61,125 bases of DNA from contig CAVPIW010000013.1 in assembly GCA_963705105.1 (NCBI GenBank), positions 1 to 61,125 on the forward strand, in the 5' to 3' direction. A program made the position numbers and the translations under genes. Below are positions 40,238 through 60,683 of this stretch, piece after piece (position 1 is the stretch's first letter; each line of letters starts with the position of its first letter). Below the pieces are notes generated by a model. That model was not told the origin of the DNA, did no database searches, and worked only from the letters and a program-made list of their open reading frames with translations. Source of the stretch: an uncultured Nitrospiraceae bacterium. Its GTDB lineage: Bacteria; Nitrospirota; Thermodesulfovibrionia; Thermodesulfovibrionales; Dissulfurispiraceae.

Positions 40238-40326
40238 TAGCTATAATACCATAAATCATCATCACAGGTGCATGTGCCCGGCAGTTGCATGAAAAGGAGG
40301 AGAGAAGTGCCGTGACCCGCTTCTTA

Positions 40327-40538
40327 CCTTATCGTTGCAACACACTCCCGGGAAAGGCGGGGTGTATGCGCCGAAAACCTTGGTGCGGCGACACCTGTAT
40401 CGAAAGGGCAGACGAACTACACGCCAATGGTCGATGACACAAACAGTGGAATCCTGAAACACGAAGCTGACGAGGCGTATCGTCGCCTTCAGCAAGGCTT
40501 TGAGGCGCTTCGCCCCGCCTTTTTATCCAACTGCAATG
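40327..40538 (-). mobile_element. hairpin MITE, copy 5
   Basis: Reverse-complement homolog of copies 1 and 6, abutting the kinase stop codon. Confidence 0.85.
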
Positions 40539-40539
40539 T

Positions 40540-42909
40540 TTACTGGCCGTTTTCGTGAAGCACCGCCTGCAAGACCTTGCCCAGTGTCTGCAGGGTGTAG
40601 GGCTTTTGAATGACGTTGTTGAAACCGTAATCCCTGTAATTGGACATGACAGGGTCCGTTGAATATCCGCTCGAAACGATCACCCTCGCCTGCGGGTCCA
40701 TCTCTCTCAGTTTCCTTGCCGTCTCGACCCCGCCCAGTCCTCCCGGGACGGTCAGATCCATGATGACAAGATCGAAGGGGTTGCCGGCTTCCCTCGACCT
40801 GGCATACTGGTCGATTACAACTGCCCCGTCCGGCGCGGTCTCCACGTTATAACCCAGTCTTTGAAGCATCGCCGCCACCACATCGCGCACCAGCTCGTCG
40901 TCATCCATGACGAGCAGCCTCCCCTTTCCGCAGGGGAGTGCATCTCCCGTCTCGCCGTGGATGCGGGTTTCTTGCGATGACGCAGGCAGATAGATATCGA
41001 ATGTCGTGCCTTTGCCGAGGTCGGAATCCACGCTGATGTGCCCTCCGTGCCTCTTGATGATCGAATGCGACGTTGACAGACCCAGTCCGCTTCCCTCCTG
41101 CTTCGTCGTGAAATAGGGGTCGAATATCCACGGGAGAAGTTCCCTCGGAATGCCCGTTCCCTGATCGGTGATGGCGATCTGCACGTAGTCACCCTTTTCC
41201 AGGGGGAGGATATCCGTATCATCGATTGTCCTGTTTTCGCACCTGACGGTAATGATCCCTCCACCGGGCATCGCCTGTTTTGCGTTGAGAATGATGTTGC
41301 CGATGACCTGGCTGATCTGTCCTTCATCGACATCAGACGGCCTGAGGTCAGCAGCAATGGCAAATTCGCATTTCGCTGACGAGCCTCTCACGGCAAATTC
41401 TGCGGAAGCCCTGATCAACGCGCCGAGGGACGTCGTCTTCTTGACGGGCGCCCCTCCCCGCGAAAATGTCAGCAACTGGCGCGTCAGTCCCTGGGCCCTC
41501 AGAACGGCCTGCTCTGCTTCGGCCAGCCTCTCGTAAGCCCGTTGCCCCACGTCGCCGGAAAGCTTCGTCAGGTTGATATTGCCGAGTATGGCCGTCAGGA
41601 CGTTATTGAAGTCATGGGCGATGCCGCCGGCCAGTATCCCGAGGGACTCGAGCTTCTGAATCCTCAGGACCTCCTCTTCCATGCTCTTCCGCTCGGTTAT
41701 ATCGCTGAGCAGGTTCAACGTCGCAGGGCGTCCCTCCCAGGCGATGAGGGCGGTCCTGATGTCCACCCACCTGACGGCGCCGTCCTTCCGGACAATCCTG
41801 AATTCGTATGCGTCGTCCTGTTTCAGCTCGCCTCTCAGTCGCTTCATGTGACGATCCCGGACCATATCCCTGTCCCTGTGATAGATGAACTCCGTAAAGG
41901 GGACGTCGGTCAGTTCCGCTTCGGTAAAGCCGCTTATCTGCACCATGCGGGGATTGACATACCTGAGGTATCCGTCCTGGGCGATGATGATCGCCTCGTT
42001 TGCGTGCTCGACGACAGTCCTGTATTTTTCCTCCGACTCCCTGAGCGCCTGCTCGGCCCGGACCCGCTCCGTGATGTCTTCACACACGACGATCGTGAAT
42101 TGGGGGACATTGTCTGCGTTTCGGATCAAAGACGCCCCGAGCTGCCCCCAGAGAATTCTGCCTGTTTTATGGATGTATCGCTTCGTAATCGTGTAATTGT
42201 CCAGCTCTCCCCGTATCAGTTGCCCGTAAAGCCATTGGCTTGACTCAATGTCATCAGGATGAGTGATTTCCGTGGCATGTACGCCGATCAGCTCTTCCTC
42301 TTTGTAGCCGAGGAACCGGCAGGCTGCGTCGTTTGCAGCAATGATGCGGCCTTCGGCGCCGACGATCGCCATGGGAATGACGGCGTTGTTGAAGAGCCCC
42401 CTGAAACGGGTCTCGCTCTGCCTCAGCGCCTCCTCCGCCTTTTTCCGCTCTGTAATATCCTCACCGATGCTCGCCGTGCCGACAATATGCCCCTGCCCAT
42501 CGCGGAGGACCGTGTTGTTCCAGGAAATGAGCCTCCGTTCGCCGGAACCGGTGATAATGTCATTTTCGTAATGCGGCGGGATGTTTCCCGTATTGACGGT
42601 GTTCAGAAAGGCGGACTTGACCTCGTCGCGGACATCGTCAGGAAGAAACATGCCGAACCAGTCTCCGCCGACGACATCTCCGCGGCACCGTCTTGTCGTC
42701 TCGAGGAGGAAATCATTGCAGAAGACTATATTCCCCTGGGTATCGAGAACAACAGCGACCAGTCTCACGGTCTCCAGCATTTCCCTGAACCGCCGTTCCG
42801 ATTCACAGAACGCGTCGTCCGCCGGCGCCTCAGCGCTCACCGGACCGGCAGGAACCGGCGCGGGCCGGTCTGTCTGCGCTGTCACCTTATCGTCTTCAGG
42901 ATTCGTCAT
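40540..42909 (-). CDS. hybrid sensor histidine kinase (3 PAS, HisKA/HATPase, receiver)
   Basis: AGGIAHDFNN, DQGTG, GSGLGL, LVMDDD...IMDL...KP. Confidence 0.95.
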   Translation of the reverse strand: MTNPEDDKVTAQTDRPAPVPAGPVSAEAPADDAFCESERRFREMLETVRLVAVVLDTQGNIVFCNDFLLETTRRCRGDVVGGDWFGMFLPDDVRDEVKSAFLNTVNTGNIPPHYENDIITGSGERRLISWNNTVLRDGQGHIVGTASIGEDITERKKAEEALRQSETRFRGLFNNAVIPMAIVGAEGRIIAANDAACRFLGYKEEELIGVHATEITHPDDIESSQWLYGQLIRGELDNYTITKRYIHKTGRILWGQLGASLIRNADNVPQFTIVVCEDITERVRAEQALRESEEKYRTVVEHANEAIIIAQDGYLRYVNPRMVQISGFTEAELTDVPFTEFIYHRDRDMVRDRHMKRLRGELKQDDAYEFRIVRKDGAVRWVDIRTALIAWEGRPATLNLLSDITERKSMEEEVLRIQKLESLGILAGGIAHDFNNVLTAILGNINLTKLSGDVGQRAYERLAEAEQAVLRAQGLTRQLLTFSRGGAPVKKTTSLGALIRASAEFAVRGSSAKCEFAIAADLRPSDVDEGQISQVIGNIILNAKQAMPGGGIITVRCENRTIDDTDILPLEKGDYVQIAITDQGTGIPRELLPWIFDPYFTTKQEGSGLGLSTSHSIIKRHGGHISVDSDLGKGTTFDIYLPASSQETRIHGETGDALPCGKGRLLVMDDDELVRDVVAAMLQRLGYNVETAPDGAVVIDQYARSREAGNPFDLVIMDLTVPGGLGGVETARKLREMDPQARVIVSSGYSTDPVMSNYRDYGFNNVIQKPYTLQTLGKVLQAVLHENGQ

Positions 42910-43181: not shown

Positions 43182-43223
43182 GACGGGATCTGCATGAGAC
43201 TCTTTATGTGATCGGCAACTTTA

Positions 43224-43435
43224 CCCTGTAGTTGAATAAAAAAGCGGGGCGAAGCGCCTCAAAGCCTTGCTGAAGGCGACGATACGCCTCGTCAGCTTCG
43301 TGTTTCAGGATTCCACTCTTTGTGTCATCGACCATTGGCGTATAGGTCGTCTGCCCTTTCGATACAGGTGTCGCCGCATCAAGGTTTTCGGCGCATACAC
43401 CCCGCCTTTCCTGGCAGTGTGTTGCAACGATAAGG
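43224..43435 (+). mobile_element. hairpin MITE, copy 6
   Basis: Homologous to copies 1 and 5; 8 bp from the patatin stop. Confidence 0.85.
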
Positions 43436-43443
43436 TTTAATTT

Positions 43444-44652
43444 CTAAAGGTCCAGCAGCCTGACGGCGATGCGGTCAGCCACTTTTTTCCCGGGTGCACC
43501 CCTGGCGCTGCGAATGCCCCGTGCTTTTGCCGCCCCTCCCGCCATTTTATTGAAATAATCGGCCATGGCGCGTTGCCCTGCAGCAACGAGGGCGTTCCGT
43601 CTTTCCCCGCTCATGTCGAACTCAGTCGTTCCGTAGCCCTGGGCCGGCAACCGCACGACGAGGTGGTTGAACTCATCGATCACCATCTTGTCATGGGCCG
43701 TCGTCGCCGTGTTCGCCAGACGGGAGAGGCGCTGCACCGTCTTCAACTCTCCCGGCTTCACGTTGACGTCTACGATCAGCCCTTTTGCACTGCGGGTTTG
43801 CATCACCGGCAGAGATTCGTCGATCAGCAGGCCGAGCACGGGATCGGCGCCCTTCGGACCCATCAGCCGCGTCACCTGAGGCTCATCGGAGATGAAGAGC
43901 TCGATGGGAAAGTTAGACAGCAGCCCGCCGTCGACGATGGTGTGGCCCGTGATGTCCTTCTGCAGATATGTCCCCCAGTCCTTGTCCCAGACCACCTCAT
44001 TCCAGACCAGGGGAATGCTCATGGACATGCGCACCGCCCAGACGACGGGGCACTTTGGAGACGTCCGGTGGTTGAGGACGAGCAGGCGACCGTCCGTCGT
44101 GTCGGACACCACCATGGACAAATCGACCTGCGTCTCATCGAAAAACCGGGCAAGTGTCATGGCGCTGAACTTCCGCGTGGACCCCTTCCAGGGGCCGCTG
44201 TCGAGCTTCGCCTGCAGCCAGGAAATGAAACGATCGGCGGCGTACCAGCCTCCACGCTCTACAAAGGCGAAGAAGTGGCGAAAACGGTCGCTCCCGGCGA
44301 GCAGCTCGGCAATCGCATCGTCCAGTCGTTCCTCGATGATGTCGGGCAGGATCTTCATGTTGACATTGCGAAGCAGATCACGGGTTGCGCTGGCCCTGAT
44401 TTCCTCCTCCGTAAAGGGCGGCGGCGTGCCCATGAACCCGGCAAAGACGGACCTGCCGTTGTCCTGCTCGTTCAGCGCCTCCAGCATCTCCTCCGCTGAG
44501 TACCCGGCGGCCATCAATGTTGCCGTAATAGCGCCGGCCGATGTCCCGAGGATCCTCCCGAAGGTATGCCCCCGCCTCGTGAATTCCGCACAGGCCCCGA
44601 CGAACACCATCCCCTTTGCCCCACCGCCTTCAAAGACCAGATCGTATTTCAT
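43444..44652 (-). CDS. patatin-like phospholipase
   Basis: FEGGGAKG, GTSAG (catalytic Ser), DGG (catalytic Asp). Confidence 0.93.
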   Translation of the reverse strand: MKYDLVFEGGGAKGMVFVGACAEFTRRGHTFGRILGTSAGAITATLMAAGYSAEEMLEALNEQDNGRSVFAGFMGTPPPFTEEEIRASATRDLLRNVNMKILPDIIEERLDDAIAELLAGSDRFRHFFAFVERGGWYAADRFISWLQAKLDSGPWKGSTRKFSAMTLARFFDETQVDLSMVVSDTTDGRLLVLNHRTSPKCPVVWAVRMSMSIPLVWNEVVWDKDWGTYLQKDITGHTIVDGGLLSNFPIELFISDEPQVTRLMGPKGADPVLGLLIDESLPVMQTRSAKGLIVDVNVKPGELKTVQRLSRLANTATTAHDKMVIDEFNHLVVRLPAQGYGTTEFDMSGERRNALVAAGQRAMADYFNKMAGGAAKARGIRSARGAPGKKVADRIAVRLLDL

Positions 44653-47800: not shown

Positions 47801-49299
47801 GCCTCCTTCCAGGACGAAGCGCCGTCCCGGTAGGCGCAGACAGCCTTTCTATGCCAATCCCGGGGATCGACAAAAAGGTCCGTCGTTGCGGAACAGGTCT
47901 TCGTTTCTCCGCTCGTCAGAAACTCCGGCATTGTGGCATGGTAGAACCTGCAGCGGTCTCCCTCTTCGTCCAGAAACTGCCGCAGGCACTCCTTCGCCTC
48001 GATCACATCGTCCCTGCTCCCGGCAATTCCGCCCAGATGACGGATCTGATCGGCGCTCAGCGGCTCGAACGCCACCGACAGCACACCGAGCGCAGGCTTG
48101 TACACCTCCGTCCAGATCGAGAGGAAATGGTCCTTCCCCGTCGACTCATCCCTCACCCTGATGCTCCTGTCCCTGACAGACGGGCTGTTCTTAATTTGAT
48201 GCAGAAAGAATGCATAGAGCTCCTGCATGTCTTTGGGAAGCTCCCTTAAGGATAGTAATCCCTTCAACAGACTAAGCCCTTCCCATTCATTCTTCTCTTT
48301 GACCGTCAAGGCCTGGTCAATTCCACGTGCAAAGGCGTCCAGGTACCCAATGTTCCCGTCAGCCCTGTTGACCGCTTCGCTAACAAAATCTGCAATTTTG
48401 CGTTTTTCACTCTTAAGGCTCGCAGCAACCTCAGGGACGCTTGCCAGCTTCTCGACGTATGTCTTCAACTCATCGTGAACACGATTGTCCTTTGATTTAA
48501 TGGTAAGCGGTCTGATAGAGGTTTGCTTCTTCTCACAAAAGGTGACGACATCTCCCTCAAGAGGCCGGGAGGTCAAAATGAACCGCACGTTATGAGGCAG
48601 TTCCGGGCAGTCGATCAGCCACTTCAGAAGTGTACCTTCAGATCCGTGGTACCGGATCTCGTCGAGAGCATCGACAAGAATGACAACCTTTTTCCCCGGG
48701 TTAAGCTTGAGGAGTAACGAGGCCGGATCGAAGAGCGCCATGAACTGGAGGTCCTTCTGATCAATAAGACGGGGATCAATGACTAGTTCGTCAACCCGGA
48801 GACCGACGACGGTTCCTTTGTTTCGTTCGACCTGCTGTTGTATCTGTAGAACCTTTGTGTAAAAAGGAGAGGCAAGAATCCTCTTGACGTCAGCCCCCGT
48901 GACCGCGCCTTGTTCTTCTACCGTCCCGATGCGCTGTTCGATGACTATCTTCACCTGTTCCTGAGTAAACAGTTCCGGGAATATCGCTGCCAATTGATAG
49001 CCGATGCGCAGCAGGAAAGAATGGACGCCCACGTCTCCCAGCGGAGTACGCTGGTCCCGCCGAATAAAATAGCGCGGCCAGTCGGGGTGATCATGCGCAA
49101 GCTGCGCCATGAAGGCGCTCTTGCCGGAGCCCGGTTCCGCCGTCAGGAACACGAAGCGGCACTCAGGGTCTTTGAATTTTTCGGCCACTTCATCAGCCAG
49201 CCAGTCACGGCGGACGAAACGCGGTCTATCATAATAGGAAGCAATGACAGAAGCGAAAAATAAGTCATCGTATTTGGAGCTATCAATCTCCGGGCTCAT
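44821..49299 (-). CDS. NACHT/STAND-like NTPase with long C-terminal helical repeats (bacterial NLR-like)
   Basis: PRFVRRDWL, AEPGSGKS (Walker A), ILVDALDE (Walker B), ILTSR, FYHAT; many RAxALxxLAPxL repeats. Confidence 0.88.
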   Translation of the reverse strand: MSPEIDSSKYDDLFFASVIASYYDRPRFVRRDWLADEVAEKFKDPECRFVFLTAEPGSGKSAFMAQLAHDHPDWPRYFIRRDQRTPLGDVGVHSFLLRIGYQLAAIFPELFTQEQVKIVIEQRIGTVEEQGAVTGADVKRILASPFYTKVLQIQQQVERNKGTVVGLRVDELVIDPRLIDQKDLQFMALFDPASLLLKLNPGKKVVILVDALDEIRYHGSEGTLLKWLIDCPELPHNVRFILTSRPLEGDVVTFCEKKQTSIRPLTIKSKDNRVHDELKTYVEKLASVPEVAASLKSEKRKIADFVSEAVNRADGNIGYLDAFARGIDQALTVKEKNEWEGLSLLKGLLSLRELPKDMQELYAFFLHQIKNSPSVRDRSIRVRDESTGKDHFLSIWTEVYKPALGVLSVAFEPLSADQIRHLGGIAGSRDDVIEAKECLRQFLDEEGDRCRFYHATMPEFLTSGETKTCSATTDLFVDPRDWHRKAVCAYRDGASSWKEAKIEGIDDYGLAHLASHSARAEWAESLHELISERWAAIKEQREGSLTGFLADTAVAWAAADASFDIALQVRYALVSASVHSMSSSLPPSLLGVLLDQGIWTSGQALRSIEQITDEEGRATALSILAPRLTAEHFDRAYALARSIQNVHERVRPLAALSARCDGERRDEITGEMFALLRAFQYESTRAYELARIAGVLPPGRLAEAIDMALLIPFADDRAVALGGLIPFLPTGFLTRVAEELRTLAAASPKKEVVEALAALARRQHGAERAETLERAQEAVLSFVDDGEVAEAFAFLVPEMTGHHLERAVAKVRSLGNPYARAEAIAALLPRCSDAVRLDLVREGREAVRYMGGGTDPVKVRAMAAFISSLSAEDALPVLEEALAEARGQDCHTAKAIGLALLIPWTPDLLRDQLRKEALDALRQPDNATRRAEAIGELAPKVTETGRDELLRIALSLDEESARVDALRNLAGHLREDLLARGLDAAEGIASDELRFKLIDGLASHLPGHLLPRAISVARALRDNEEQAAAILAFALHAPMEECPLAPPELIAMIAAIPSLLDRIAKLHRLVEWLPESLRPLAWKHILEELRAFPSTSDDLPKALAGIVHAVPEVHLQEVLAIVDGIDNDYRRGQALLGLVPALPDSRIAEAVTAVHQISPVTTRAKELVRCLPRIPEQDRPGLIRSLLSDARSESERAGVIVTLASHLPPGVLAEVMTASLKLRAESGYRAAALVPLLPHLPEKEKPLAGEKTLEAITLTGNWQQRAESIAACATGGYLSGELIQRALAAAREIGDEGFRARALAALMPCLGPDERTSVLSETLGACRSRLLILRKAGASTVECTDILVGLALSASSGAEWKELFWEAYRGLYAHQRAQALVCLVPTLPPEERADLLKEALIQGAQWVWKHDAARGAWDRSWAWVGIIGQWQSLLSSDARSLWKDALHALAERSRADLLLDLAFFAPMVKHLGEKEAVTATIRVMKDVTRWWP

Positions 49300-49390
49300 C
49301 GCTTGTCATCCCTTCATCATGTCCATCAAAAGGACGCATGGTGCGGTGACATGTTTTCCCGCTCAGCTGCAGCATCACAGAAGAATTCGA

Positions 49391-50549
49391 TCAATGTTTC
49401 ACTCTTTTCCGTGTCAACTTGGCGCATTGCTGTTGCAGCCACGTGATGCGTTGGCCGATCTTCAGTATGTTGTCCGCCGAGAAACCAGGATCCTCAGGAG
49501 CCAGCTCATATGTCCTCTGCCACTCCTGAACTGCCCTTATGCACCATTCTTCTTTGTGCGTCGGGTCGCTCTCCATCTTGTCCTCGAATGCAAGGGCCAG
49601 ATCGTTGTGCGCTGCCGTGTAGGTTGGGAGCAAATCGATCGCCCGTTTATATGATGCAATGGCAGCGTCCGTGTTTCCTAATGCGTGCTCAATATTTCCA
49701 AGGCCATTGTGAGCGCCTGCATTATCGGGCTCCTGCTGCGCGACATGCCGGAAAAGTCTCGCAGCCTCTTCGTAGTATTTCTGCTTACTGGCGTGGTCGT
49801 TCATAGCGTCCGCGACTTGTGCAAGAGTTTTGGCTATGTACCCACGCTGTGTCAGTGCGCTTGGACCCAAGGGGTCCGTATGCATGGCCGCACTGCGAGC
49901 GTCTTCTAACTTCTTTACTGCAGCCCCGTAATTCTGTGTATTGATGTCATTCCATGGCTCGGGATTGCTGTATCCAGGCGATGGATTCGAACGAGTCAGA
50001 ATATTCCGTGTCTATGGCACAGGCCTGGTGAAAGTATTTCAGGGCCTCTTCGTATTTCCGGTCATATGCCGCCAGCATGCCCAAATGGTAAAGTGTCTGG
50101 GCGGATACAGGCAGGCCTCTGGACGCGACATCCTTCTGTGCGGCCTCAACTTCGGCAATCTGACGACTGACGTTCTCAGGCACGGACTGAGTTGCCAGGA
50201 CCTTCAGGGTCTGTTTGTCGACGCCCTGCAGTGCAGCAATCCGATTGACGATCTCATCGAGCGCCTGAGGCCCCAGGACCATGACGTTGTTCGTGATCGT
50301 CTTCCGGTCAACATAGTCACCCTTTACGATCTTCTTCTCCATCTGATTGACCGTACTCCGGATCGTAATCTTCCCTTTCACTTTTCCGATCGCCACCCCC
50401 GTAACCTTGCCACCTTCGACCGTGCCCACCTCCTGGGCAACGTTTATCCTGGCAGATGGCTTCGCGGTCTTCTTGATTTGTACACCGCAATTTGGGCAGA
50501 AACTTGCCTTGTCAGGAAGGGGTTCGCAACCGCACTTTGGGCATTTCAT
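49391..50549 (-). pseudogene. zinc-ribbon + beta-repeat + TPR protein, split by a 1-nt frameshift near 49950
   Basis: CPKC/CPNC N-terminus; GCC ATG G AAT GAC: removing one G joins 50549-49947 to the 49885-49391 TPR ORF (AMNDINTQNYGAAVKKLEDARSAAMHTDP). Confidence 0.8.
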
Positions 50550-50594
50550 GGACACTCCTTCACAAACTCATTTTGACCATTTTCGCCTCACTCA

Positions 50595-51803
50595 TCAGGC
50601 GCCCGGGATCAGATTCTCCTTGACCACTTCTGCGACGCCCTTTGTAAGGTTGGGAAACCGGATCTGTTCATAGCCGATGTAGTCATACCCAGCGTACACC
50701 AACACCGCCAGCAACGCCACCCGGAGAGCCGTGACGACCGCGAGAACCTGAGGAAATTGAGCCTGGACGAACTTGGACAGCCCGATGACGTCCCCAATCG
50801 TGTTGATGCGCCCTACCAGGACTGTGAACTTGTCGGACAGCGCCGCGACGGTAATCGCGGTCGCGTTGATCACCTCCACCCCGGCCGCGGTTTTCGCCAG
50901 CCAACCCGGCAGCGCTGCATCAAGCGCATCAACCTTGTAGAGCTTGCCGACCAACTTCTCGAATAGTTCAATTTTGCCGGTCTTCTGGATCTCGTCAAGC
51001 CACGCCTTGATTCGCTTGCGGGCTTCGCCTTCGACCTCTCTGCCCAGCAGGGCCAAGATCTTATCGTAGACGTTGAGCACAGTCCTGGTGGCTGTCGAGA
51101 TAGCGTGTTGAATGAGCGCGCTCGCCCCCTCCTTCACGCGGTCAAACACCTTCGCGATGTCTTTACTCAGCAATCCCGCGCTCTCCATGACCGCACTCCA
51201 CTCAGTCTTGAACACCAACTTGAAGGCAAGATCGCCGCCGACCTCAACCACCCTCTGTGAGATGGCGCTCGCCGTCACGGTGGCCGCTTGCTGCAGTGCT
51301 TTCTTGGCCGTCTCAGGAGTGTCCGCCGCTTTTGGGGCGCGCCGAGCCTTACTGGGAGCGACTAGCCCTGCGGAAACGGTCTTCGCCATCGCCTTCTCCA
51401 TATTGTCGATGGCCTCGCGCAGGCTGGCACCGCGTGCTGCGCGCGTTATCCCGCGAGGCGCCCGTTCGGCTGCTGAAGGAGGACCGGCTGTCTCGCTCGC
51501 AGCGATCTGCATCAGCTCAGTCGCAACCTGCAGTTCCGCTGCAGCCTGCGCCAGCAGCTGCCCGCTGATGCCCTCACGCAGGGCCGGGTCCGGCGCCTGC
51601 AGGTAGACCTGAGCCAGCGGCGCCATTTTCTCCGAAATATCGGCTATAACTTCTGCGTGATCGATCAGCGTCTCCACGGGTATGTCTGCGGCGCCGCGCG
51701 TGACTGCCCTATTTCCGGCGGGCCGCGCATCCCTCAGCGCCCGGAACCGGGCGAGGTAGTCCTTCGTTGCCTCTTCATACGTGTGGTACACCTGTCTCTC
51801 CAT
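50595..51803 (-). CDS. uncharacterised Ala-rich helical protein with hydrophobic C-terminal segment
   Basis: 402-aa ORF, RBS AAAGGAGA, co-oriented in cluster; VLAVVTALRVALLAVLVYAGYDY. Confidence 0.8.
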   Translation of the reverse strand: MERQVYHTYEEATKDYLARFRALRDARPAGNRAVTRGAADIPVETLIDHAEVIADISEKMAPLAQVYLQAPDPALREGISGQLLAQAAAELQVATELMQIAASETAGPPSAAERAPRGITRAARGASLREAIDNMEKAMAKTVSAGLVAPSKARRAPKAADTPETAKKALQQAATVTASAISQRVVEVGGDLAFKLVFKTEWSAVMESAGLLSKDIAKVFDRVKEGASALIQHAISTATRTVLNVYDKILALLGREVEGEARKRIKAWLDEIQKTGKIELFEKLVGKLYKVDALDAALPGWLAKTAAGVEVINATAITVAALSDKFTVLVGRINTIGDVIGLSKFVQAQFPQVLAVVTALRVALLAVLVYAGYDYIGYEQIRFPNLTKGVAEVVKENLIPGA

Positions 51804-51850
51804 TGTTGATCTCCTTTCGGGGTACTGAGGTCGCCTCTATCCGGATGTCA

Positions 51851-53302
51851 TCAAAGACTGCCCTCCCACCCCACGATCTCTCCCCCTTTCTTTATTGTCT
51901 TGACTTTCTGTTTCACGGTGGCCTGGGTGCCTTCCTCGGTTTCCTTACTTTTGATCCCAACCATCTTGCCTCCCCTACCCACAATCCCCGCGCCTTGCCG
52001 TACATCGAGGGAACCTTTAAGCTTGGTAACCTTGATCCCGGTCATCTTGCCTTCAAGCGTATCTGTAACGGTCTGTCGGATGATCTTCCGGAACTGCTCG
52101 GCAGCCCGTCCAGCCCGCTGCATCCGTTCGGGAAATAGTTGGCCGTCAGGCAAGCGGCTGTAAAGGACAGGCACGCCCCATTCGACATCCACGTTGTGTT
52201 CGAGATCCGGATTGGTGCTGGTCTCTCGCAGCATCGCTCGTCGTGCCGCCGACATCGCTTCGTCCAGTGACAGGCCGATGGCAAGCGCGCTATAGAAGGC
52301 CCGGCTGAAAGCCTTGGCGCTGACGTCGATCACCTCATACTGCATGGCGACGATCGCCGGGATTTCCCTGGCGGCCAACGCACTGGCAAGACCATCCCAA
52401 GAGGCTCTTTCCTGACGTTCACCGGAGTAGCACGCCCCCAGGACGACCAGCCGCACGCCTGCATCCTGGACGATCGCCGCGAGGTCGCTGGCGTGCAACC
52501 TGGCCTCTGCCCTGCTTTTCTTGTCGGCAACGAGGAGCAGCGCGGCTTCGTCATGCGGGCCTGCAGTGGACCCCTCAGGCCCGGGAATGCCGTGCCCCGC
52601 AAAGTGGAAGATATGAGTTCCCTTAGGCAGTTTCTGGGCCAATTCATCGGGGGTCGCATTCGTGAGCACCGGGCCGAGCGTAAAGCGTACCCCTTCCACG
52701 TTGAAGTCCTTCAGGGACTCCCGGATCACCGCGAGGTCCTTGTCCAACCGAAGCTTCGGCTGTTTCTTCGGTAAGGCTGATGCGAATACCATTCGGATGT
52801 CGGTCACATCCTTCGTCGTCTTTTCCTGCGTCGGGTGGGGGTGCGGTATGGGTTCGTGACGCACAATTGAAATGCGTGGGTTCAGCGCGAGAAACCCGAG
52901 CATGGACTTGGATTCGGGACCGCCAAGGAAGTCGAGGTAGGCATATTCCCAGGGCCACGTCTTCAGAACGTGGTCGGCAATGATCAGGCGCAGCCGCACG
53001 CCGCCATCGATGCCGGCCCGGTCATAAGCCGCTCGAAACCGCTCCCGAATGACCCCCTCAGGTAGGAGGCAGTTAGCAAGCTTCTTGCCCAGCACAACCA
53101 TGCTGCCAAAAGTCCCCTGTTTAGCAACCAGCAACAGCATGGCATCGGATGGAGGACTCTCTTGGAGGGGAACCGAAATAGGAGTAATCGTCTCGCCCAC
53201 CTCTGGAGTCGGCAACAGAGCCACTTGGCACACGCTCTTTCCATCCGGAGAGCGTGTCAGGTAGAGGTTAAAGTCCATATATTGTCGTGGTTTTGTTGCC
53301 AT
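51851..53302 (-). CDS. CHAT-domain (caspase-like) protease with C-terminal beta-repeat tail
   Basis: WPWEY, HFAGHG, VVLGACYS, VAMQYEV, FSRAFY, WGVPVLY; RBS AGGAGG before ATG 53302. Confidence 0.92.
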   Translation of the reverse strand: MATKPRQYMDFNLYLTRSPDGKSVCQVALLPTPEVGETITPISVPLQESPPSDAMLLLVAKQGTFGSMVVLGKKLANCLLPEGVIRERFRAAYDRAGIDGGVRLRLIIADHVLKTWPWEYAYLDFLGGPESKSMLGFLALNPRISIVRHEPIPHPHPTQEKTTKDVTDIRMVFASALPKKQPKLRLDKDLAVIRESLKDFNVEGVRFTLGPVLTNATPDELAQKLPKGTHIFHFAGHGIPGPEGSTAGPHDEAALLLVADKKSRAEARLHASDLAAIVQDAGVRLVVLGACYSGERQERASWDGLASALAAREIPAIVAMQYEVIDVSAKAFSRAFYSALAIGLSLDEAMSAARRAMLRETSTNPDLEHNVDVEWGVPVLYSRLPDGQLFPERMQRAGRAAEQFRKIIRQTVTDTLEGKMTGIKVTKLKGSLDVRQGAGIVGRGGKMVGIKSKETEEGTQATVKQKVKTIKKGGEIVGWEGSL

Positions 53303-54168
53303 ATCGTCTTCCTCCTGCAGGGCTTCCAATCACGAGAATATCTGCCTCTTCTTGTTCGTCTTCTTCCCCTCCAACTGCGGGTGCTGAGGATAGCCGCCGT
53401 CGTCCAGCAGCACCTGGAGGCGGTCATGCACCTGTTGATACGTGATCTGATAGTTCAACTCCTTGATGGCCTGCAGGGCATAGTAGGTCATGGCGCCGTG
53501 ATAGGTCCCGCCGATGAGGGCGTCATAGGAATACTCCTTGTCCGAGCACCCGCTCAGGAGCACGTCCTTCATCTTCGATTCCGGGAACTTGATCTTCCCC
53601 TTCGGTTTTGCCTTAAAGGGATTCTCCAGCACCTTCATGCCCATGAGGGCCGGATTGAGAAACCTTATTCTCCTGTCATCAGGCGTTTTCAATCCGGGAA
53701 TGACCTCGGCGACTGCCGCCCGCGTCACCGTACCGGAGAAGCAGGAGTCAGAGATGACCGTCATGCGGACACCCTTTTGCAGCTCCGCAAACATGTTACG
53801 CAGCTCATCGTCGATAATCAGGTTGGAATCGCAGTCATAGGGACAGAGGGCCTCATCGTACTTTTCTTCATCGCCGCCCTCCTCTGCAACATAGGTTCCG
53901 TGCGATGAGTTGGTGAAGACGAGGATATCGCCGGACTGGGCGCCTGCCAGCAGGTCTTTAATGCCGGCGATCATTTTCTCCTTCGTGGCCTCGGTATCGA
54001 GCATGAGTTTCACGTCGGCCTTTGCGAAACCGAAATGATCGATAATGAGTCCCGCCCACGCCTTTGCGTCATTGACACAGCCGTTGAGATCGTTGCCGTC
54101 ATAGGGATAATCGTTGATGCCCACACAGAGAGCCTGGGGTCGGTTGTCAATAGTGGACACCAAACCTC

Positions 54169-55032
54169 TCATGCTGCCTGTGCATTCATATGGTATGCTT
54201 TTTCAAAAGCAGCAGGTGAAAGATACCCAAGTCTTGCCTGCCGCCGCTGCCGATTGTAGAACACCTCGATATACTCGGTGATCTCCCGAATCGCCTCCTG
54301 CCTCGTCTTATACCGCCTGTGATGCACAAGTTCACTTTTCAACACTCCCCAGAAACTCTCCATCGGCGCGTTGTCATAGCAGTTGCCCGTCCCGCTCATT
54401 GAGGCATTCATCTTCAAGTGTTTCAGCAGCTTCCTGTAGTCATGCGCACAATACTGACTGCCCCGGTCAGAGTGGTGTATCAGCTCTGCAGGAGGACGTT
54501 TCGCCCAGATCGCTCGTAACAACGATTCCCTGACAAGGTTCTGTGTTATCCTCTCCCCCATCGCATACCCCACAATCTCTCCCGCAAAAAGGTCCTTATG
54601 CGCTGCAAGATATAGCCACCCTTCCTCCGTCGGGATATACGTGATGTCGCTGACCCACACGCGGCCCGGTGCCGTCGCCTCAAAGTCTTGCTGTAGCAGA
54701 TTGTCCGCCACAGGTAACGTATGCCGCGAGTCCGTTGTGACCTTGAACCGCCGCTTTTGTTTGCACCGTATCCCCAATTTCCTGCGTATCCTCTTGATTC
54801 GGCTCACTCCTGCTTTCACCCCGTGGGCTGCCAAATCCTTCTGCAGACGCTCCGGACCATACGTCCCTCGTGTGCGCTCGTGTGCCGCCTGTATCTCGAC
54901 CTCCAACCGCGCCTCCTCTTTGGCATGGGCGGACGCGGGCCGACTGACCCAGGCAAAATAACCGCTCGCCGATACATCAAAAACACGGCTCATAAACGGG
55001 ATCGGATACTCGAGTCGCAATTCATTCATCAT
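54169..55032 (-). CDS. IS3 transposase OrfB
   Basis: Identical protein to 9918-10781. Confidence 0.95.
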   Translation of the reverse strand: MMNELRLEYPIPFMSRVFDVSASGYFAWVSRPASAHAKEEARLEVEIQAAHERTRGTYGPERLQKDLAAHGVKAGVSRIKRIRRKLGIRCKQKRRFKVTTDSRHTLPVADNLLQQDFEATAPGRVWVSDITYIPTEEGWLYLAAHKDLFAGEIVGYAMGERITQNLVRESLLRAIWAKRPPAELIHHSDRGSQYCAHDYRKLLKHLKMNASMSGTGNCYDNAPMESFWGVLKSELVHHRRYKTRQEAIREITEYIEVFYNRQRRQARLGYLSPAAFEKAYHMNAQAA

Positions 55033-55343
55033 CGCGTACCTGGCTGCGACTCCCTCGCAAAGTACGCGGCCGCTTTTTTTAACAGGTCCCGCTCCATCCT
55101 CGTCTCTATAAGCTCTTTCTTGACTCTTGCCAGTTCCATCTCTATCTCGGTGAGGGGCCGATAGTTCTTGCCGATGTCCTTGAGTTTGCCGGCCTTATAC
55201 GCCTTGACCCAGTTGCCCAACGTAGATGGCGGCAACGACAACCGATGGGCCACTTCAGGTAATGACATGCCTGTCTCCACAATCATCTTCACTGCTTCCT
55301 CTCGAAATTCCTTCGTGTACCGTCCTTGCGGAATCCCTTTCAT
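55029..55343 (-). CDS. IS3 transposase OrfA
   Basis: Identical protein to 10778-11092. Confidence 0.95.
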   Translation of the reverse strand: MKGIPQGRYTKEFREEAVKMIVETGMSLPEVAHRLSLPPSTLGNWVKAYKAGKLKDIGKNYRPLTEIEMELARVKKELIETRMERDLLKKAAAYFARESQPGTR

Positions 55344-55570
55344 TCTGACACCTCCGTCTTTCTTAGTTTACCGACTTTGGTGTCCACTTTTTCCATCTAC
55401 TCAAGCCCTCTTTGCCATGCCGTCCTCCTTCCGGGGACCATGATGTCCCCAACGCGGTCTTTACTCGTGTTTTTTATCTGCGCCTTTTCCCTTTCATTCT
55501 GTTGCCACGGTATATATTGTGCGCGCCTCCGGTTTTTTTGACCGCATCAAAGTTTTTGGTCCCGTCGCAC

Positions 55571-56569
55571 TCAGGAAAACATGCCCTCCGCGAGCCATTC
55601 CGATCGGTACACGGTCCAGAAATCCACTGCCAGCCCCTCCTCAACATATTTGTAGGGGAGATAGCCGTACCCGTTCTCGCCCCAATCATCGCCCCAGGAG
55701 TTCCGGAAAATCAAACACCCTTCCTTCATCTTTTTCCCGGCGTCCTCGATTTCGATATCATCGTCATAGCCCACCGCCAAAACGGCGTGACCGCCCTGCA
55801 GTCTGTCCGTCGACGTCGGATAGGGCACGTAGGGAGAATCGGTCATCGACGTGTAAACAGGAAACCCGAAGGCCACCACAAAGCCCGCCGCCAGGACGTA
55901 TTTGACGGCGCCCAGCGTCTCTTTGCCGCTCGCATGGTAAGGATCCAGACGGGCGTACTTCATCGCCTTGAAGTTGTTGGCATACCCATAGAGAAACGCG
56001 TCCGGCTCGTCCTCATAACGACTGATGTCATAAGGGCAATACTCCTCGGGGGGCACGCCGAAGCCGGCGGCGGCCTTGATGGTGGTGCGAATGTGAGCGC
56101 CCGTATCCCCTGTCCAGCCAAGCAGCCGGCGGGTCACTTTATATAGAAACAGCCGGGACAGGTCGGTGTGCTCGCCGATCCCGCGCCGCATCATATACTC
56201 CAGCATGCCGATGACGGCGTGGGCGGTGCATGAGCCGAGGGCGTCCTGGTTTTCTACCGAAGAACAATACGAGCGATTGTCTGCGCGATTTGGAATTTTC
56301 GTCGTCACAGGCGCAAGGCCAAGACGCACGTTCGCTGTCTGTAAGGGTTCTTTAAATGCGGGCGTGTCCAGGCCGTGATCGCGGCAGTCCGGGATATCGG
56401 GTTGCCAGCCGCCGGCAACCTGACGTCGACCGGAGCGCGGTATAATGAGGCCGGCCCCTGTTTTCATAAGGACGGCCTTGCCGTCGGCACGGGAAATAAC
56501 GACACCTCCTCCGGCGCGAGATGCAATCGGGCGGGCCCCGGCCTTTGACGCAGTTTTGTCTGTTTTCAT
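55571..56569 (-). CDS. papain-like cysteine protease (peptidase C1), copy 1
   Basis: NQDALGSCTAHA, LSRLFLY, GGHAVLAVGYDD, RNSWG. Confidence 0.93.
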   Translation of the reverse strand: MKTDKTASKAGARPIASRAGGGVVISRADGKAVLMKTGAGLIIPRSGRRQVAGGWQPDIPDCRDHGLDTPAFKEPLQTANVRLGLAPVTTKIPNRADNRSYCSSVENQDALGSCTAHAVIGMLEYMMRRGIGEHTDLSRLFLYKVTRRLLGWTGDTGAHIRTTIKAAAGFGVPPEEYCPYDISRYEDEPDAFLYGYANNFKAMKYARLDPYHASGKETLGAVKYVLAAGFVVAFGFPVYTSMTDSPYVPYPTSTDRLQGGHAVLAVGYDDDIEIEDAGKKMKEGCLIFRNSWGDDWGENGYGYLPYKYVEEGLAVDFWTVYRSEWLAEGMFS

Positions 56570-56699
56570 GACGATTTCTCCTGATCTCTTCGTATGGCGT
56601 TAGCTCGGTTAATGAACGACCCGGGGGACCCTTTTCAATCCCCCGGATACATGCAACAGGCGTGGCCGTTGTCCCCGCTTTCTCGGCAGGCGACAGACA

Positions 56700-57515
56700 T
56701 CACGTGAATATCTGCCTCTTTTTGTTCGTCTTCTTCCCTTCCAGTTGCGGGTGCTGGGGGTAGCCGCCGTCGTCCAGCAGCACCTGGAGGCGGTCATGCA
56801 CCTGCTGGTGCGTGATCTGATAGTTCAGCTCCTTGATGGCCTCGATGGCGTAATAGGTCATGGCGCCGTGATAGGTCCCGCCGATGAGGGCGTCATAGGA
56901 GTATTCCTTGTCCGTGCAGCCGCTGAGCAGGAGCGCCTTCATTTTTGACTCCGGGTACTTGATCTTCCCTTTCGGTTTTGCCTTGAAGGGATTCTCGAGC
57001 ACTTTCCTGCCCATGAGAGCGGGGTTGAGAAACCTGATCCTTCTGTCGTCAGGGGTCTTCAGTCCGGGAATGATCTCGGTAATGGCCGCCCGCAGCACAG
57101 TTCCCGAGAAGCAGGAGTCCGAGACGACCGTCATGCGGACACCCTTTGCAAGCCCTTCAATGAGCTCGCGCAACTCGTCATCGACGATGAGATTTTCTGC
57201 ACAGTCGTAAGGACAAAGGGCCTCGTCGTACATCTCCTCATCTCCGCTCGTGTCCGCCAGATATGTTCCGTGCGACGAGTTTGTGAAGACGAGGATATCG
57301 CCCGACTTTGCACCTGTCAGCAGGTCCTTGATGCCTGCGATCATTTTCGCCTTTGTGGCCTCGGCGTCGAACATGAGCTTCACATCGGCCTTCGGGAACC
57401 CGAAGTGATCGATGATGAGACCGGCCCACGCCTTCGCGTCGTTGACGCACCCGTTGAGATCGTTACCGTCATAGGGATAATCGTTGATTCCCACACAGAG
57501 AGCCCTCTTTGCCAT
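56700..57515 (-). CDS. metacaspase (peptidase C14) B, copy 1
   Basis: SSHG / DSCFSG dyad; intact paralog of metacaspase A. Confidence 0.95.
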   Translation of the reverse strand: MAKRALCVGINDYPYDGNDLNGCVNDAKAWAGLIIDHFGFPKADVKLMFDAEATKAKMIAGIKDLLTGAKSGDILVFTNSSHGTYLADTSGDEEMYDEALCPYDCAENLIVDDELRELIEGLAKGVRMTVVSDSCFSGTVLRAAITEIIPGLKTPDDRRIRFLNPALMGRKVLENPFKAKPKGKIKYPESKMKALLLSGCTDKEYSYDALIGGTYHGAMTYYAIEAIKELNYQITHQQVHDRLQVLLDDGGYPQHPQLEGKKTNKKRQIFT

Positions 57516-57831
57516 GCCGTCCTCCTTCCGGGGATTATAATGTCCCCAGGACCTTTTATTACATGTTCTTCAGGTGTTTCCCGTACTCCTCCGAAATCTC
57601 CCGTAGCAATATCTTACTAATTCATACCACAAAATGACATTCCTGTCTTGACCTTTTTTGCTTTTCTTTTGACATATTTTCTCAGGAATGATGAAATCGC
57701 CGTTGCGGGGGAGTTACGGACGGGGAATGCTCAGCGTTGTCTGAGCGGCAGGAGAAGTCAGGATGGGCTTTACAGAGGTCGGAGCGGGGATAACCGGACG
57801 ATACAACTCGGATTAGGAAATAGAGCTGTTC

Positions 57832-58191
57832 CTATTGGCGCTTAAGCCCCAGGGCCTTCGAGTATGATTCCTCGGAAAAGCCGTAGATCTTTTTCCCGTT
57901 GATGATGGCAAAGGGAACGCCCTTGCGTCCGGAAAGCTCCTTCTTTCGCTCTGCTGCCCTGCTGTCCTTTTCTATATCGTAGGCCACATACCGGATGCGA
58001 TTGTCCTGAAGGAACTTGACGGCTTTCGCGCAATAGGGGCACCAGTCGGTAATGTAAATTTCGACCGTCGCTGCTTTCTCGTCGGCAGCAATTATCCGTC
58101 CGCCAGGTTTCGAAGACTCTCCGAAACAGAGACACTGTGTTCCCAGTATTACGGCTACCATCATTGCAAAAGCAACAAGCTTCACTCTCAT
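57832..58191 (-). CDS. exported glutaredoxin/NrdH-like protein, copy 1
   Basis: Signal peptide, WCPYC, GVP...ING...GF. Confidence 0.88.
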   Translation of the reverse strand: MRVKLVAFAMMVAVILGTQCLCFGESSKPGGRIIAADEKAATVEIYITDWCPYCAKAVKFLQDNRIRYVAYDIEKDSRAAERKKELSGRKGVPFAIINGKKIYGFSEESYSKALGLKRQ

Positions 58192-58422
58192 ATCCGTCTC
58201 CTTCAGGTTTGTATGCAACTCAACTATGCTGTGACATCCGTGGTCTTTCTGTTAGAGCCCTCTTTGCCATGCCGTCCTCCTTCCGGGGACCATGATGTCC
58301 CCAACGCGGTCTTTACTCGTGTTTTTTATCTGCGCCTTTTCCCTCTCATTCTGTTGCCACGGTATATATTGTGCGCGCCTCCGGTTTTTTTGACCGCATC
58401 AAAGTTTTTGGTCCCGTCGCAC

Positions 58423-59421
58423 TCAGGAAAACATGCCCTCCGCGAGCCATTCCGATCGGTACACGGTCCAGAAATCCACTGCCAGCCCCTCCTCAACATA
58501 TTTGTAGGGGAGATAGCCGTACCCGTTCTCGCCCCAATCATCGCCCCAGGAGTTCCGGAAAATCAAACACCCTTCCTTCATCTTTTTCCCGGCGTCCTCG
58601 ATTTCGATATCATCGTCATAGCCCACCGCCAAAACGGCGTGACCGCCCTGCAGTCTGTCCGTCGACGTCGGATAGGACACGTAGGGAGAATCGGTCATCG
58701 ACGTGTAAACAGGAAACCCGAAGGCCACCACAAAGCCCGCCGCCAGGACGTATTTGACGGCGCCCAGCGTCTCTTTGCCGCTCGCATGGTAAGGATCCAG
58801 ACGGGCGTACTTCATCGCCTTGAAGTTGTTGGCATACCCATAGAGAAACGCGTCCGGCTCGTCCTCATAACGACTGATGTCATAAGGGCAATACTCCTCG
58901 GGGGGCACGCCGAAGCCGGCGGCGGCCTTGATGGTGGTGCGAATGTGAGCGCCCGTATCCCCTGTCCAGCCAAGCAGCCGGCGGGTCACTTTATATAGAA
59001 ACAGCCGGGACAGGTCGGTGTGCTCGCCGATCCCGCGGCGCATCATATACTCCAGCATGCCGATGACGGCGTGGGCGGTGCATGAGCCGAGGGCGTCCTG
59101 GTTTTCTACCGAAGAACAATACGAGCGATTGTCTGCGCGATTTGGAATTTTCGTCGTCACAGGCGCAAGGCCAAGACGCACGTTCGCTGTCTGTAAGGGT
59201 TCTTTAAATGCGGGCGTGTCCAGGCCGTGATCGCGGCAGTCCGGGATATCGGGTTGCCAGCCGCCGGCAACCTGACGTCGACCGGAGCGCGGTATAATGA
59301 GGCCGGCCCCTGTTTTCATAAGGACGGCCTTGCCGTCGGCACGGGAAATAACGACACCTCCTCCGGCGCGAGATGCAATCGGGCGGGCCCCGGCCTTTGA
59401 CGCAGTTTTGTCTGTTTTCAT
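58423..59421 (-). CDS. papain-like cysteine protease (peptidase C1), copy 2
   Basis: As copy 1 except YVPYP to YVSYP. Confidence 0.93.
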   Translation of the reverse strand: MKTDKTASKAGARPIASRAGGGVVISRADGKAVLMKTGAGLIIPRSGRRQVAGGWQPDIPDCRDHGLDTPAFKEPLQTANVRLGLAPVTTKIPNRADNRSYCSSVENQDALGSCTAHAVIGMLEYMMRRGIGEHTDLSRLFLYKVTRRLLGWTGDTGAHIRTTIKAAAGFGVPPEEYCPYDISRYEDEPDAFLYGYANNFKAMKYARLDPYHASGKETLGAVKYVLAAGFVVAFGFPVYTSMTDSPYVSYPTSTDRLQGGHAVLAVGYDDDIEIEDAGKKMKEGCLIFRNSWGDDWGENGYGYLPYKYVEEGLAVDFWTVYRSEWLAEGMFS

Positions 59422-59551
59422 GACGATTTCTCCTGATCTCTTCGTATGGCGTTAGCTCGGTTAATGAACGACCCGGGGGACCCTTTTCAATCCCCCGGAT
59501 ACATGCAACAGGCGTGGCCGTTGTCCCCGCTTTCTCGGCAGGCGACAGACA

Positions 59552-60367
59552 TCACGTGAATATCTGCCTCTTTTTGTTCGTCTTCTTCCCTTCCAGTTGC
59601 GGGTGCTGGGGGTAGCCGCCGTCGTCCAGCAGCACCTGGAGGCGGTCATGCACCTGCTGGTGCGTGATCTGATAGTTCAGCTCCTTGATGGCCTCGATGG
59701 CGTAATAGGTCATGGCGCCGTGATAGGTCCCGCCGATGAGGGCGTCATAGGAGTATTCCTTGTCCGTGCAGCCGCTGAGCAGGAGCGCCTTCATTTTTGA
59801 CTCCGGGTACTTGATCTTCCCTTTCGGTTTTGCCTTGAAGGGATTCTCGAGCACTTTCCTGCCCATGAGAGCGGGGTTGAGAAACCTGATCCTTCTGTCG
59901 TCAGGGGTCTTCAGTCCGGGAATGATCTCGGTAATGGCCGCCCGCAGCACAGTTCCCGAGAAGCAGGAGTCCGAGACGACCGTCATGCGGACACCCTTTG
60001 CAAGCCCTTCAATGAGCTCGCGCAACTCGTCATCGACGATGAGATTTTCTGCACAGTCGTAAGGACAAAGGGCCTCGTCGTACATCTCCTCATCTCCGCT
60101 CGTGTCCGCCAGATATGTTCCGTGCGACGAGTTTGTGAAGACGAGGATGTCGCCCGACTTTGCACCTGTCAGCAGGTCCTTGATGCCTGCGATCATTTTC
60201 GCCTTTGTGGCCTCGGCGTCGAACATGAGCTTCACATCGGCCTTCGGGAACCCGAAGTGATCGATGATGAGACCGGCCCACGCCTTCGCGTCGTTGACGC
60301 ACCCGTTGAGATCGTTACCGTCATAGGGATAATCGTTGATTCCCACACAGAGAGCCCTCTTTGCCAT
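59552..60367 (-). CDS. metacaspase B, copy 2
   Basis: Identical protein to 56700-57515. Confidence 0.95.
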   Translation of the reverse strand: MAKRALCVGINDYPYDGNDLNGCVNDAKAWAGLIIDHFGFPKADVKLMFDAEATKAKMIAGIKDLLTGAKSGDILVFTNSSHGTYLADTSGDEEMYDEALCPYDCAENLIVDDELRELIEGLAKGVRMTVVSDSCFSGTVLRAAITEIIPGLKTPDDRRIRFLNPALMGRKVLENPFKAKPKGKIKYPESKMKALLLSGCTDKEYSYDALIGGTYHGAMTYYAIEAIKELNYQITHQQVHDRLQVLLDDGGYPQHPQLEGKKTNKKRQIFT

Positions 60368-60683
60368 GCCGTCCTCCTTCCGGGGATTATAATGTCCCCA
60401 GGACCTTTTATTACATGTTCTTCAGGTGTTTCCCGTACTCCTCCGAAATCTCCCGTAGCAATATCTTACTAATTCATACCACAAAATGACATTCCTGTCT
60501 TGACCTTTTTTGCTTTTCTTTTGACATATTTTCTCAGGAATGATGAAATCGCCGTTGCGGGGGAGTTACGGACGGGGAATGCTCAGCGTTGTCTGAGCGG
60601 CAGGAGAAGTCAGGATGGGCTTTACAGAGGTCGGAGCGGGGATAACCGGACGATACAACTCGGATTAGGAAATAGAGCTGTTC

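Follow-up and report, generated by a model that had tools for sequence, protein, structure and literature searches.

A repeated beta-strand motif shared by a STAND NTPase, a Zn-ribbon/TPR protein and a CHAT protease, with the receptor copies inside the NTPase domain

Several receptor systems are linked to their effectors by a short motif that both partners carry. Bacterial amyloid signaling sequences (BASS) are found at the N-termini of NLR proteins and at the C-termini of effectors with CHAT, TIR2, cyclase and hydrolase domains (bioRxiv 10.1101/2020.01.06.895854). In the papers cited here, the NLR-linked amyloid signals all sit at the receptor's free N-terminus. Statements on this preprint and the other papers cited here by identifier refer to the portions of their text that were available. 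The only functionally tested bacterial precedent that we found is the BASS11 pair Bab/Agp (bioRxiv 10.1101/2024.11.07.622273). Its receptor is a TPR-GreA/B-PIN protein with an N-terminal motif, and the motif also occurs on TIR, CHAT and NACHT proteins. In bNACHT and Avs systems (bioRxiv 10.1101/2022.07.19.500537; PMC13581612), a STAND NTPase is joined to a C-terminal repeat sensor. Here we analyze a 61,125-nucleotide stretch of DNA from an uncultured Nitrospiraceae bacterium (contig CAVPIW010000013.1, assembly GCA_963705105.1), called the window below, in which a STAND NTPase, a Zn-ribbon/TPR protein and a CHAT protease share a repeated motif. Like Bab/Agp, the locus has a short motif common to receptor and effector, and like bNACHT and Avs its NTPase ends in a putative repeat sensor; unlike those all-in-one proteins, it has no fused effector. 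The best reading is that the motif works like a pair of the BASS kind or of HRAM, the amyloid motifs related to HET-s, as a homotypic BASS-like module that couples the partners and is unusually placed in the receptor. The design principle, CHAT partner included, is already known since BASS pairs show it.

An initial annotation of the window had listed six copies of the motif in the three proteins, and all six are present on the minus strand (Table 1). They are members of a widespread repeat family with the pattern h-x-h-x-Q-x-h…G-x-h-x-G-h and about 26 amino acids (aa) per repeat. Two features had been overlooked: the two receptor copies are internal to the NTPase domain, with Walker A on one side and Walker B on the other, and the gene with the TPR copy is split by one extra base. 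A position-specific scoring matrix (PSSM) was trained solely on the NACHT-insert repeats of 120 homologs, the window's own NACHT included. This matrix scored the copies outside the NTPase at 22.8 bits (TPR protein) and at 16.6, 12.3 and 15.5 bits (CHAT). A shuffle control of 2.27 million residues gave about 5.7 matches at ≥14 bits and 1.3 at ≥16 bits. A pattern derived from the copies, and thus partly circular, occurred at seven places in the six-frame genome, five of them in these three genes; the genome-wide mean for the same pattern in shuffles was 5.3. Chance similarity of the copies was ruled out by the PSSM scores compared with shuffles, together with the forward and reverse co-occurrence tests below.

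On the receptor side, the motif forms a two-copy insertion of about 57 aa between Walker A (aa54-61) and Walker B (aa206-214), not an N-terminal tag. A search with NTPase aa1-300 found 239 homologs at E ≤ 1e-10 (proteins of 820-2611 aa), and the best 120 of the 239 were analyzed. All 120 start within about 30 residues of the query start. Q122 and Q155 are each kept in 120/120, G135 in 109/120 and G166 in 118/120. The median Walker A-to-B spacing was 153 aa at insert-bearing loci compared to 96.5 aa in insert-less relatives, and a few one-copy forms had an intermediate spacing. Of 50 NTPases with the insert, 4 have Walker A past residue 200 of their open frame, compared to 17 of 26 without it. 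Since Walker A is rarely past residue 200 when the insert is present, the insert accompanies the loss of a long N-terminal region. From these sequence comparisons, we infer that the insertion may take over the role of an effector domain that is apparently fused N-terminally in the insert-less relatives.

The AlphaFold2 (AF2) model of NTPase aa1-480 is a STAND core with a predicted local distance difference test (pLDDT) score of 88.8. In it, the insert adds four extra strands (aa119-173, pLDDT 64-82), placed after the helix that follows strand 2 and ahead of the helix that leads to Walker B. A fold search with this model found NRC2 (8rfh; Z 18.1, root-mean-square deviation (rmsd) 4.3, 306 residues aligned), as well as MalT, Avs3 and NLRP9. 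The protein has the features of a STAND NTPase: a P-loop nucleotide-binding domain with invariant Walker residues, a D[AGS]hDE Walker B, helical and winged-helix domains, and C-terminal repeats, which in the homologs are TPR, helical or WD40. Walker A and B are both retained intact in the main clade, and the long helical-repeat region is probably the sensor. Going by STAND topology, the insert may occupy a place equivalent to the initiator-specific motif of Apaf-1. That motif lines the central pore of the Apaf-1 ring (PMC5050015).

On the effector side, the copies form the C-terminal tail of the CHAT protease. Among the best 120 of 559 CHAT homologs, a tail match of at least 14 bits was found in 112 and three copies in 84, with a repeat spacing of 26-27 aa in 150 of 198 intervals. 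The catalytic residues His237 and Cys291 were invariant in 108 aligned sequences, and the fold matched Csx29 (7y9x; Z 20.2, rmsd 3.8, 304 residues aligned), so the protein has both the caspase-hemoglobinase fold and the intact His-Cys dyad of a CHAT protease. AF2 models the tail as strands (pLDDT 63-93).

A profile built from 23 tails was searched against 1.84 billion cluster representatives and matched 327 of them at E ≤ 0.001. In 120 of the top 150, the match stopped within 10 residues of the C-terminus. Pfam, run on the 127 of these 150 that were about 100 aa or longer, identified 28 CHAT proteins, 2 TCAD2 proteins and a single case each of TIR, PNP_UDP_1, protein kinase, guanylate cyclase and DUF4062; the PNP, kinase, cyclase and DUF4062 tail-bearers were absent from the seed set of the profile. 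Two clusters of small helical tail proteins (29 and 27) and several membrane-protein clusters had no significant Pfam match. The same tail is thus exchanged between proteins of the CHAT, Bell-like, TIR, PNP, cyclase and kinase types and membrane proteins. A Bell-like tail protein was also found on one plasmid, and no CHAT relatives were found in viral contigs. The 23 tails matched no Pfam family except for single weak matches. A PDB sequence search with the tail gave nothing better than E 1.4 and the ESM Atlas no usable match, although these blanks are not proof of novelty. The fold searches used whole-protein models and their results were filled by CHAT or STAND cores, so the fold class of tail and insert rests on no library match.

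Co-occurrence of the receptor and effector copies was scored in both directions. For the forward test, at least 125 loci around NTPase relatives were collected from GTDB genomes and JGI metagenomes, and removal of 8 duplicates, of loci under 8 kb and of loci without a STAND-core match left 79. With a model trained on the insertion alone, 16 of the 51 loci with the insert had a neighbor with a C-terminal multi-copy (2-3) tail, compared to 1 of the 28 without it. Among the 16, the hit at L087 is apparently spurious, and the single tail-positive locus without the insert (L054) has an intermediate Walker spacing. The Fisher p value of 0.004 overstates the difference since kin are not independent. 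With the tail profile at non-seed loci, the counts were 12/34 and 0/27, respectively. The neighbors included CHAT, small helical Bell-like (by eye), TIR, membrane, TCAD2/EAD8 and one-copy STAND proteins, and the hosts, according to record titles, included Anaerolineae, Ktedonobacteraceae, Nostoc, Pseudanabaena, Streptomyces, Actinosynnema, Desulfobacterales, Acidobacteriota and Methanosarcinales.

For the reverse test, whole genomes were searched with the tail profile, with the center genome excluded each time. Matches were found in 7/144 genomes (the order of genome G042), 2/250, 15/250 (including one unpublished genome, G1179, that entered this count alone), 14/250 and 2/111. The profile had no match in three further samples with limited candidates scored, drawn from the host's phylum (300 other genomes), the phylum of G042 (400) and the class of G045 (200). 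The surroundings of 39 hits were taken, and two on contigs already in the forward set were dropped. At 18 of the remaining 37, the motif (≥12 bits) was present in another open reading frame (ORF) within 5 kb, compared to 1.08 expected from shuffles; at a stricter 14 bits, the count was 14/37 compared to 0.4. The partners were NTPases with the insert, nSTAND1 or NACHT proteins that carry a single N-terminal copy, Zn-ribbon/TPR proteins and, in actinomycetes, the proteins described below. No motif partner was seen at L151, L157, L159, L168 and L182. The system is rare, patchy and cross-phylum. The initial annotation had proposed a homotypic module linking the NTPase and the TPR protein to CHAT, and had staked this in part on enrichment of the motif in neighboring genes. 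That enrichment was found in both tests, and the tail swapping, together with the rung covariation and the weak complex prediction below, points the same way.

Some partners differ from the window's receptor. Those in actinomycetes are 700-1050 aa long with no Pfam match, and show by eye a degenerate Walker A with one shorter copy just ahead of it. At L163, L165, L172-L181 and L183-L185, small helical tail genes overlap or abut the genes of these partners, whose N-terminus is of low complexity. Judged by sequence alone, these partners apparently form an unannotated inactive-STAND-like receptor family. At L109 (3012-4385) and L020 (13785-14480), the motif occurs with EAD8 and/or TCAD2 and another Gly/Asp/Ile-rich beta segment, and these proteins are possible adaptors bridging two signaling systems. 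A clostripain (C11) peptidase gene lies 5' of the tail-bearing CHAT gene at L148, and the upstream genes of L149, L151 and L153 have a similar start sequence. The tail-bearing protein at L147 (10195-11076) has a weak, sub-cut-off match to the Cap4 nuclease and adjoins a Zn-ribbon/motif/nSTAND1 gene.

Receptor and effector copies were somewhat more similar in cognate than in non-cognate combinations (28.7 compared to 25.2 over 36 pairs whose kin are not independent; permutation p 5e-5, or 0.004 within taxon groups). Mean-field coupling in the insert linked residues one repeat apart, namely A132-T163, D137-R168, K139-D170 and R140-E171, the last three with opposite charges. In the tail, it returned a Gln ladder (Q410-Q436-Q465), G422-G449 and K424-K451. 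This covariation fits beta-solenoid rungs in a stack. For NTPase aa12-270 and the CHAT tail, a predicted complex scored 0.56, compared to 0.00 for the best of three controls; the runs agreed on at least 95% of contacts and the partner pLDDT was at least 78. Of the calibration pairs, 116 of 157 solved ones and 2 of 215 mismatched ones reached the mark, and the range at or below 0.60 held just 18 solved pairs plus both mismatches. Structure prediction, which the initial annotation had advised as a check on cross-beta stacking, gave weak support for an insert-tail complex.

The locus resembles BASS1-10 in several respects (bioRxiv 10.1101/2020.01.06.895854). An adjacent NLR-like NTPase and effector share a motif of about 25 aa that is rich in G, V, I and Q and predicted to be beta; it is C-terminal in the effector, often in two to three repeats, and common to the products of adjacent receptor and effector genes. 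The effectors overlap (CHAT, TIR, cyclase and, by eye, small helical Bell-like proteins), and the hosts of both include actinomycetes, cyanobacteria, Chloroflexota and Methanosarcinales. In contrast to BASS, where the copy precedes NACHT or NB-ARC, the receptor copies of the window's clade lie between Walker A and Walker B; an N-terminal position does occur in the Zn-ribbon/TPR protein and, elsewhere, in receptors of other classes. The BASS screen needed a Pfam NACHT/NB-ARC match and examined only the N-terminus ahead of it (same preprint). It could not pair this clade since the NTPase, at 34 bits for NPHP3_N and 17.9 bits for NACHT, falls below the NACHT cut-off and since the motif is internal. 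No in-register match to BASS1-10 was seen by eye or in short-word searches, as opposed to profile searches, in part of supplement 1 of PMC8086366, which covered one validation fold of all ten classes and the NLR sides from C03 onward. The nearest class, C06, is alike only in its charged beta-solenoid character. BASS11, judged only by the residues named in the text (I87-G88-S89-V90, D99-N100), gives no hint of Q…GG-x-V-x-G.

The initial annotation had also compared the motif to RHIM and HET-s, and membership in these families was not supported, with no match to their Pfam models among the window proteins at E ≤ 1 or the 23 tails at E ≤ 10. The RHIM, PP, HET-s (HRAM) and sigma models of Pfam gave no match, a result limited by HMMER filters that lose weak short-motif matches and by the unconfirmed presence of these models in the Pfam copy used. 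The arrangement is similar to that of HET-S/NWD2 of Podospora in having fewer rungs in the receptor and more at the effector C-terminus, stacked rungs (here predicted) and charge-compensating pairs one repeat apart. It differs in its repeat of 26-27 aa rather than 21 aa, in its internal receptor copy and in its effector, a protease here and a HeLo pore domain in HET-S. Since the receptor copies are not N-terminal to NACHT or NB-ARC and no sequence match was found, the motif was not assigned to a named BASS or HRAM class. The available passages of 10.1101/2022.07.19.500537 and PMC13581612 do not mention an amyloid motif or beta-insert of this kind. The literature as available held no description of the motif or of an intra-NACHT signaling insert, although figures, bioRxiv supplements and subscription papers could hold it unpaired, from the Bell side. 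PADLOC and NCBIfam scans of the locus proteins returned no system name.

The motif very probably mediates receptor-effector coupling. We favor coupling through templated, amyloid-like stacking, with a probability of roughly 0.55. In this mechanism, each copy of about 26 aa would be one beta-solenoid rung, made of two long strands joined by Gly arcs. The STAND helical-repeat region would sense a trigger, probably an invader, upon which the NTPase would oligomerize and bring its two-rung inserts together, possibly near the ring axis. The clustered rungs would then template the three-rung CHAT tail by HET-s-like stacking, and the one-rung Zn-ribbon/TPR protein could join the same stack as a second sensor or adaptor. 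Clustering or tail release would make the CHAT protease active, and active CHAT may cut the motif-less 402-aa neighbor at Arg sites.

A number of observations weigh against templated stacking. With both ends of the receptor copy tethered in a folded domain, open-ended growth of a fibril may be hindered. The tails (G 15%, V 15%, I 7-9%, Q 5-6%, P 0.5-1%, N 2-3%, K ~7.5%) match the Q/N/G/V/I-rich, K/P/L-depleted BASS composition in G, V, I, Q and low P, but N is rare and K is not depleted (same BASS preprint), and the window's CHAT tail has a net charge of +8. About 22 of the 51 insert-bearing loci lack a scored tail-bearing neighbor, some of them on short contigs. Several tail-bearing CHATs and NTPases are repeatedly accompanied by genes that lack the motif, so some of the linkage could be inherited synteny. 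The window's receptor and effector copies resemble each other no more than non-cognate copies do (rank 17 of 36), so this pair is not specially matched. The coupling analysis drew on shallow alignments of about 90-100 effective sequences, and some of its top pairs are off register or unexplained. The score of the complex is weak and came with no interface, and AF2 can over-predict confident beta-solenoids for repeats (PMC11795689).

Several of these points would also be expected if the two sides simply docked. Pre-folded solenoids of the tail (two to three rungs) and the insert (two rungs) could stack end to end on an oligomerized NTPase to give a defined complex, as with CARD and death-fold adaptors, in which proximity activates the protease and no self-propagating fibrils form. 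One of the 23 tails weakly matches Bactofilin (E 0.0066), a lead only that fits such docking. Bactofilin is a beta-helical protein that polymerizes end to end. Also in line with docking are the anchorage of the insert at both ends, the weak cognate matching, the charged, N-poor and nearly Pro-free tails, and the folding of tail and insert by AF2, the tail as a monomer. However, AF2 confidence in solenoids is unreliable (PMC11795689), and the copy numbers, two to three in the effector and one in many receptors, mirror those of HET-S/NWD2 and BASS. One rung by itself, which is what the TPR protein and the actinomycete receptors carry, would be unlikely to fold alone and would need templating. 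We consider finite docking unlikely, but a serious rival.

The shared motif might act in the opposite direction, with the receptor insert or the one-copy TPR protein capping the effector tail until sensing frees the effector, as in a toxin-antitoxin or securin-separase pair. The tight pairing of the genes with toxic-type effectors, the prediction of a complex with a monomeric NTPase domain and the degenerate Walker A of many actinomycete partners (by eye) could be explained in this way. We rate this as quite improbable: the main clade keeps both Walker motifs, NTPases with the insert are without the long N-terminal regions seen in their relatives, which fits recruitment, and in the tested analogues HET-S/NWD2 and Bab/Agp the shared motif activates the effector (bioRxiv 10.1101/2020.01.06.895854, 10.1101/2024.11.07.622273). 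It is very improbable that the copies do not bind each other at all and reflect shared ancestry or a common ligand, e.g. a phage or third host protein, within co-inherited defense islands. The unremarkable match of the window's pair and the weak support for a complex would agree with this, as would the patchy, mobile nature of the loci, with an IS3 element directly upstream and no match in the 300 other genomes of the host phylum. Yet the tail is on unrelated effectors and the receptor copy on unrelated receptors that are adjacent throughout, and insert-less STAND loci are almost never tail-bearing.

The genes of the locus run on the minus strand in the order C14 caspase, CHAT, 402-aa helical protein, Zn-ribbon/TPR protein, STAND NTPase and patatin (Table 1). 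No second copy of the NTPase, CHAT, TPR or 402-aa gene was found in the same genome.

Table 1. Coordinates of the motif copies, the genes that carry them and other features of the window
Feature	Position	Strand	Remarks
STAND (NACHT/NPHP3_N-like) NTPase, 1492 aa	44821..49299	-	Short N-terminus, NTPase with motif insertion, long helical-repeat region
Insertion in NTPase domain (~aa113-178), two motif copies	48766..48963	-	
NTPase motif copy 1, aa118-138	48886..48948	-	
NTPase motif copy 2, aa151-169	48793..48849	-	
Zn-ribbon/motif/TPR protein, ~388 aa	49391..50555	-	Pfam Zn-ribbon and TPR; split into ORFs 49947-50555 and 49391-49885
Zn-ribbon/TPR protein, sole motif copy, aa37-56	50388..50447	-	
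402-aa helical protein without motif	50595..51803	-	Candidate CHAT substrate
CHAT (caspase/separase-fold) protease, three-copy C-terminal tail	51851..53329	-	Pfam CHAT 87 bits; probable ATG 53302, giving 483 aa
CHAT tail copy 1, aa415-434	52028..52087	-	
CHAT tail copy 2, aa441-461	51947..52009	-	
CHAT tail copy 3, aa470-490, extreme C-terminus	51860..51922	-	
C14 caspase-family protease, heads gene run, motif-less	53330..54172	-	Pfam Peptidase_C14 93 bits
Patatin phospholipase, 3' of NTPase, motif-less	43444..44652	-	Pfam Patatin 97 bits
~200-bp intergenic repeat copies	352-572, 36382-36598, 38098-38308, 40323-40544, 43221-43444	both	

The extra base in the Zn-ribbon/TPR gene lies near 49950 and breaks the reading frame at 49950-49951. 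Intact single-ORF orthologs of about 390-400 aa at L023 and L084 align through the break and conserve the motif, and the extra base is missing from a near-identical contig of public run X1 (one contig, depth 5.9). The frameshift is likely an assembly error or a strain-specific lesion. A second beta-rich segment with G-D-Y-V follows the motif in this protein (aa58-92, about 50280-50385, minus strand) and is conserved in two orthologs; it may represent extra rungs or a second, different signaling tag. The 402-aa protein had no match in Pfam, NCBIfam or PADLOC, and only Atlas leads under 0.9. Its homologs occur at seven forward loci and at L150, mostly beside a tail-bearing CHAT gene. Three T/E-R-G/A/S sites are kept in probable linkers, and the protein has a C-terminal hydrophobic stretch. 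We infer that it could be a CHAT substrate and a candidate protease-activated membrane effector.

Homologs of the C14 protease were found at L010 and L014, and 5' of the CHAT gene at L150. Patatin homologs of 63-69% identity are present at L014, L042 and L091, and patatin is a possible second effector of the system. The IS3-type element upstream of the run (54135-55403) lies directly at the start of the C14 gene; a near-identical copy is at 9884-11154, with more on other contigs. Beyond it, 55404-61097 holds a 2851-bp tandem duplication (99.4% identical) with a C14 caspase, a papain-family C1 peptidase and a glutaredoxin, which could be an assembly artefact since it finishes near the contig end. 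The intergenic repeat in Table 1 is present in five copies that are 81-96% identical, and resembles miniature inverted-repeat transposable elements or repetitive extragenic palindromic sequences.

A receptor clade with its signal within the ATPase domain would be a second way of wiring oligomerization to the recruitment of effectors, and would account for the action of STAND proteins that have no effector fused to them. Tentatively, and at somewhat less than even odds, the locus may belong to a cross-phylum class of NLR signaling in which nucleating rungs are built into the nucleotide-binding domain and ring formation gathers them at the central pore. The same rung would then be a universal plug, through which NACHT inserts, nSTAND1, Zn-ribbon/TPR and degenerate STAND proteins could template any tail-bearing effector, including proteases, TIR proteins, cyclases, kinases and membrane helices. 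The motif is also a handle on the partners of unannotated small proteins and CHAT proteases, several hundred in number. With CHAT cleavage and a candidate substrate next to the protease gene, this locus offers an enzymatic read-out for the question of polymerization versus finite docking.

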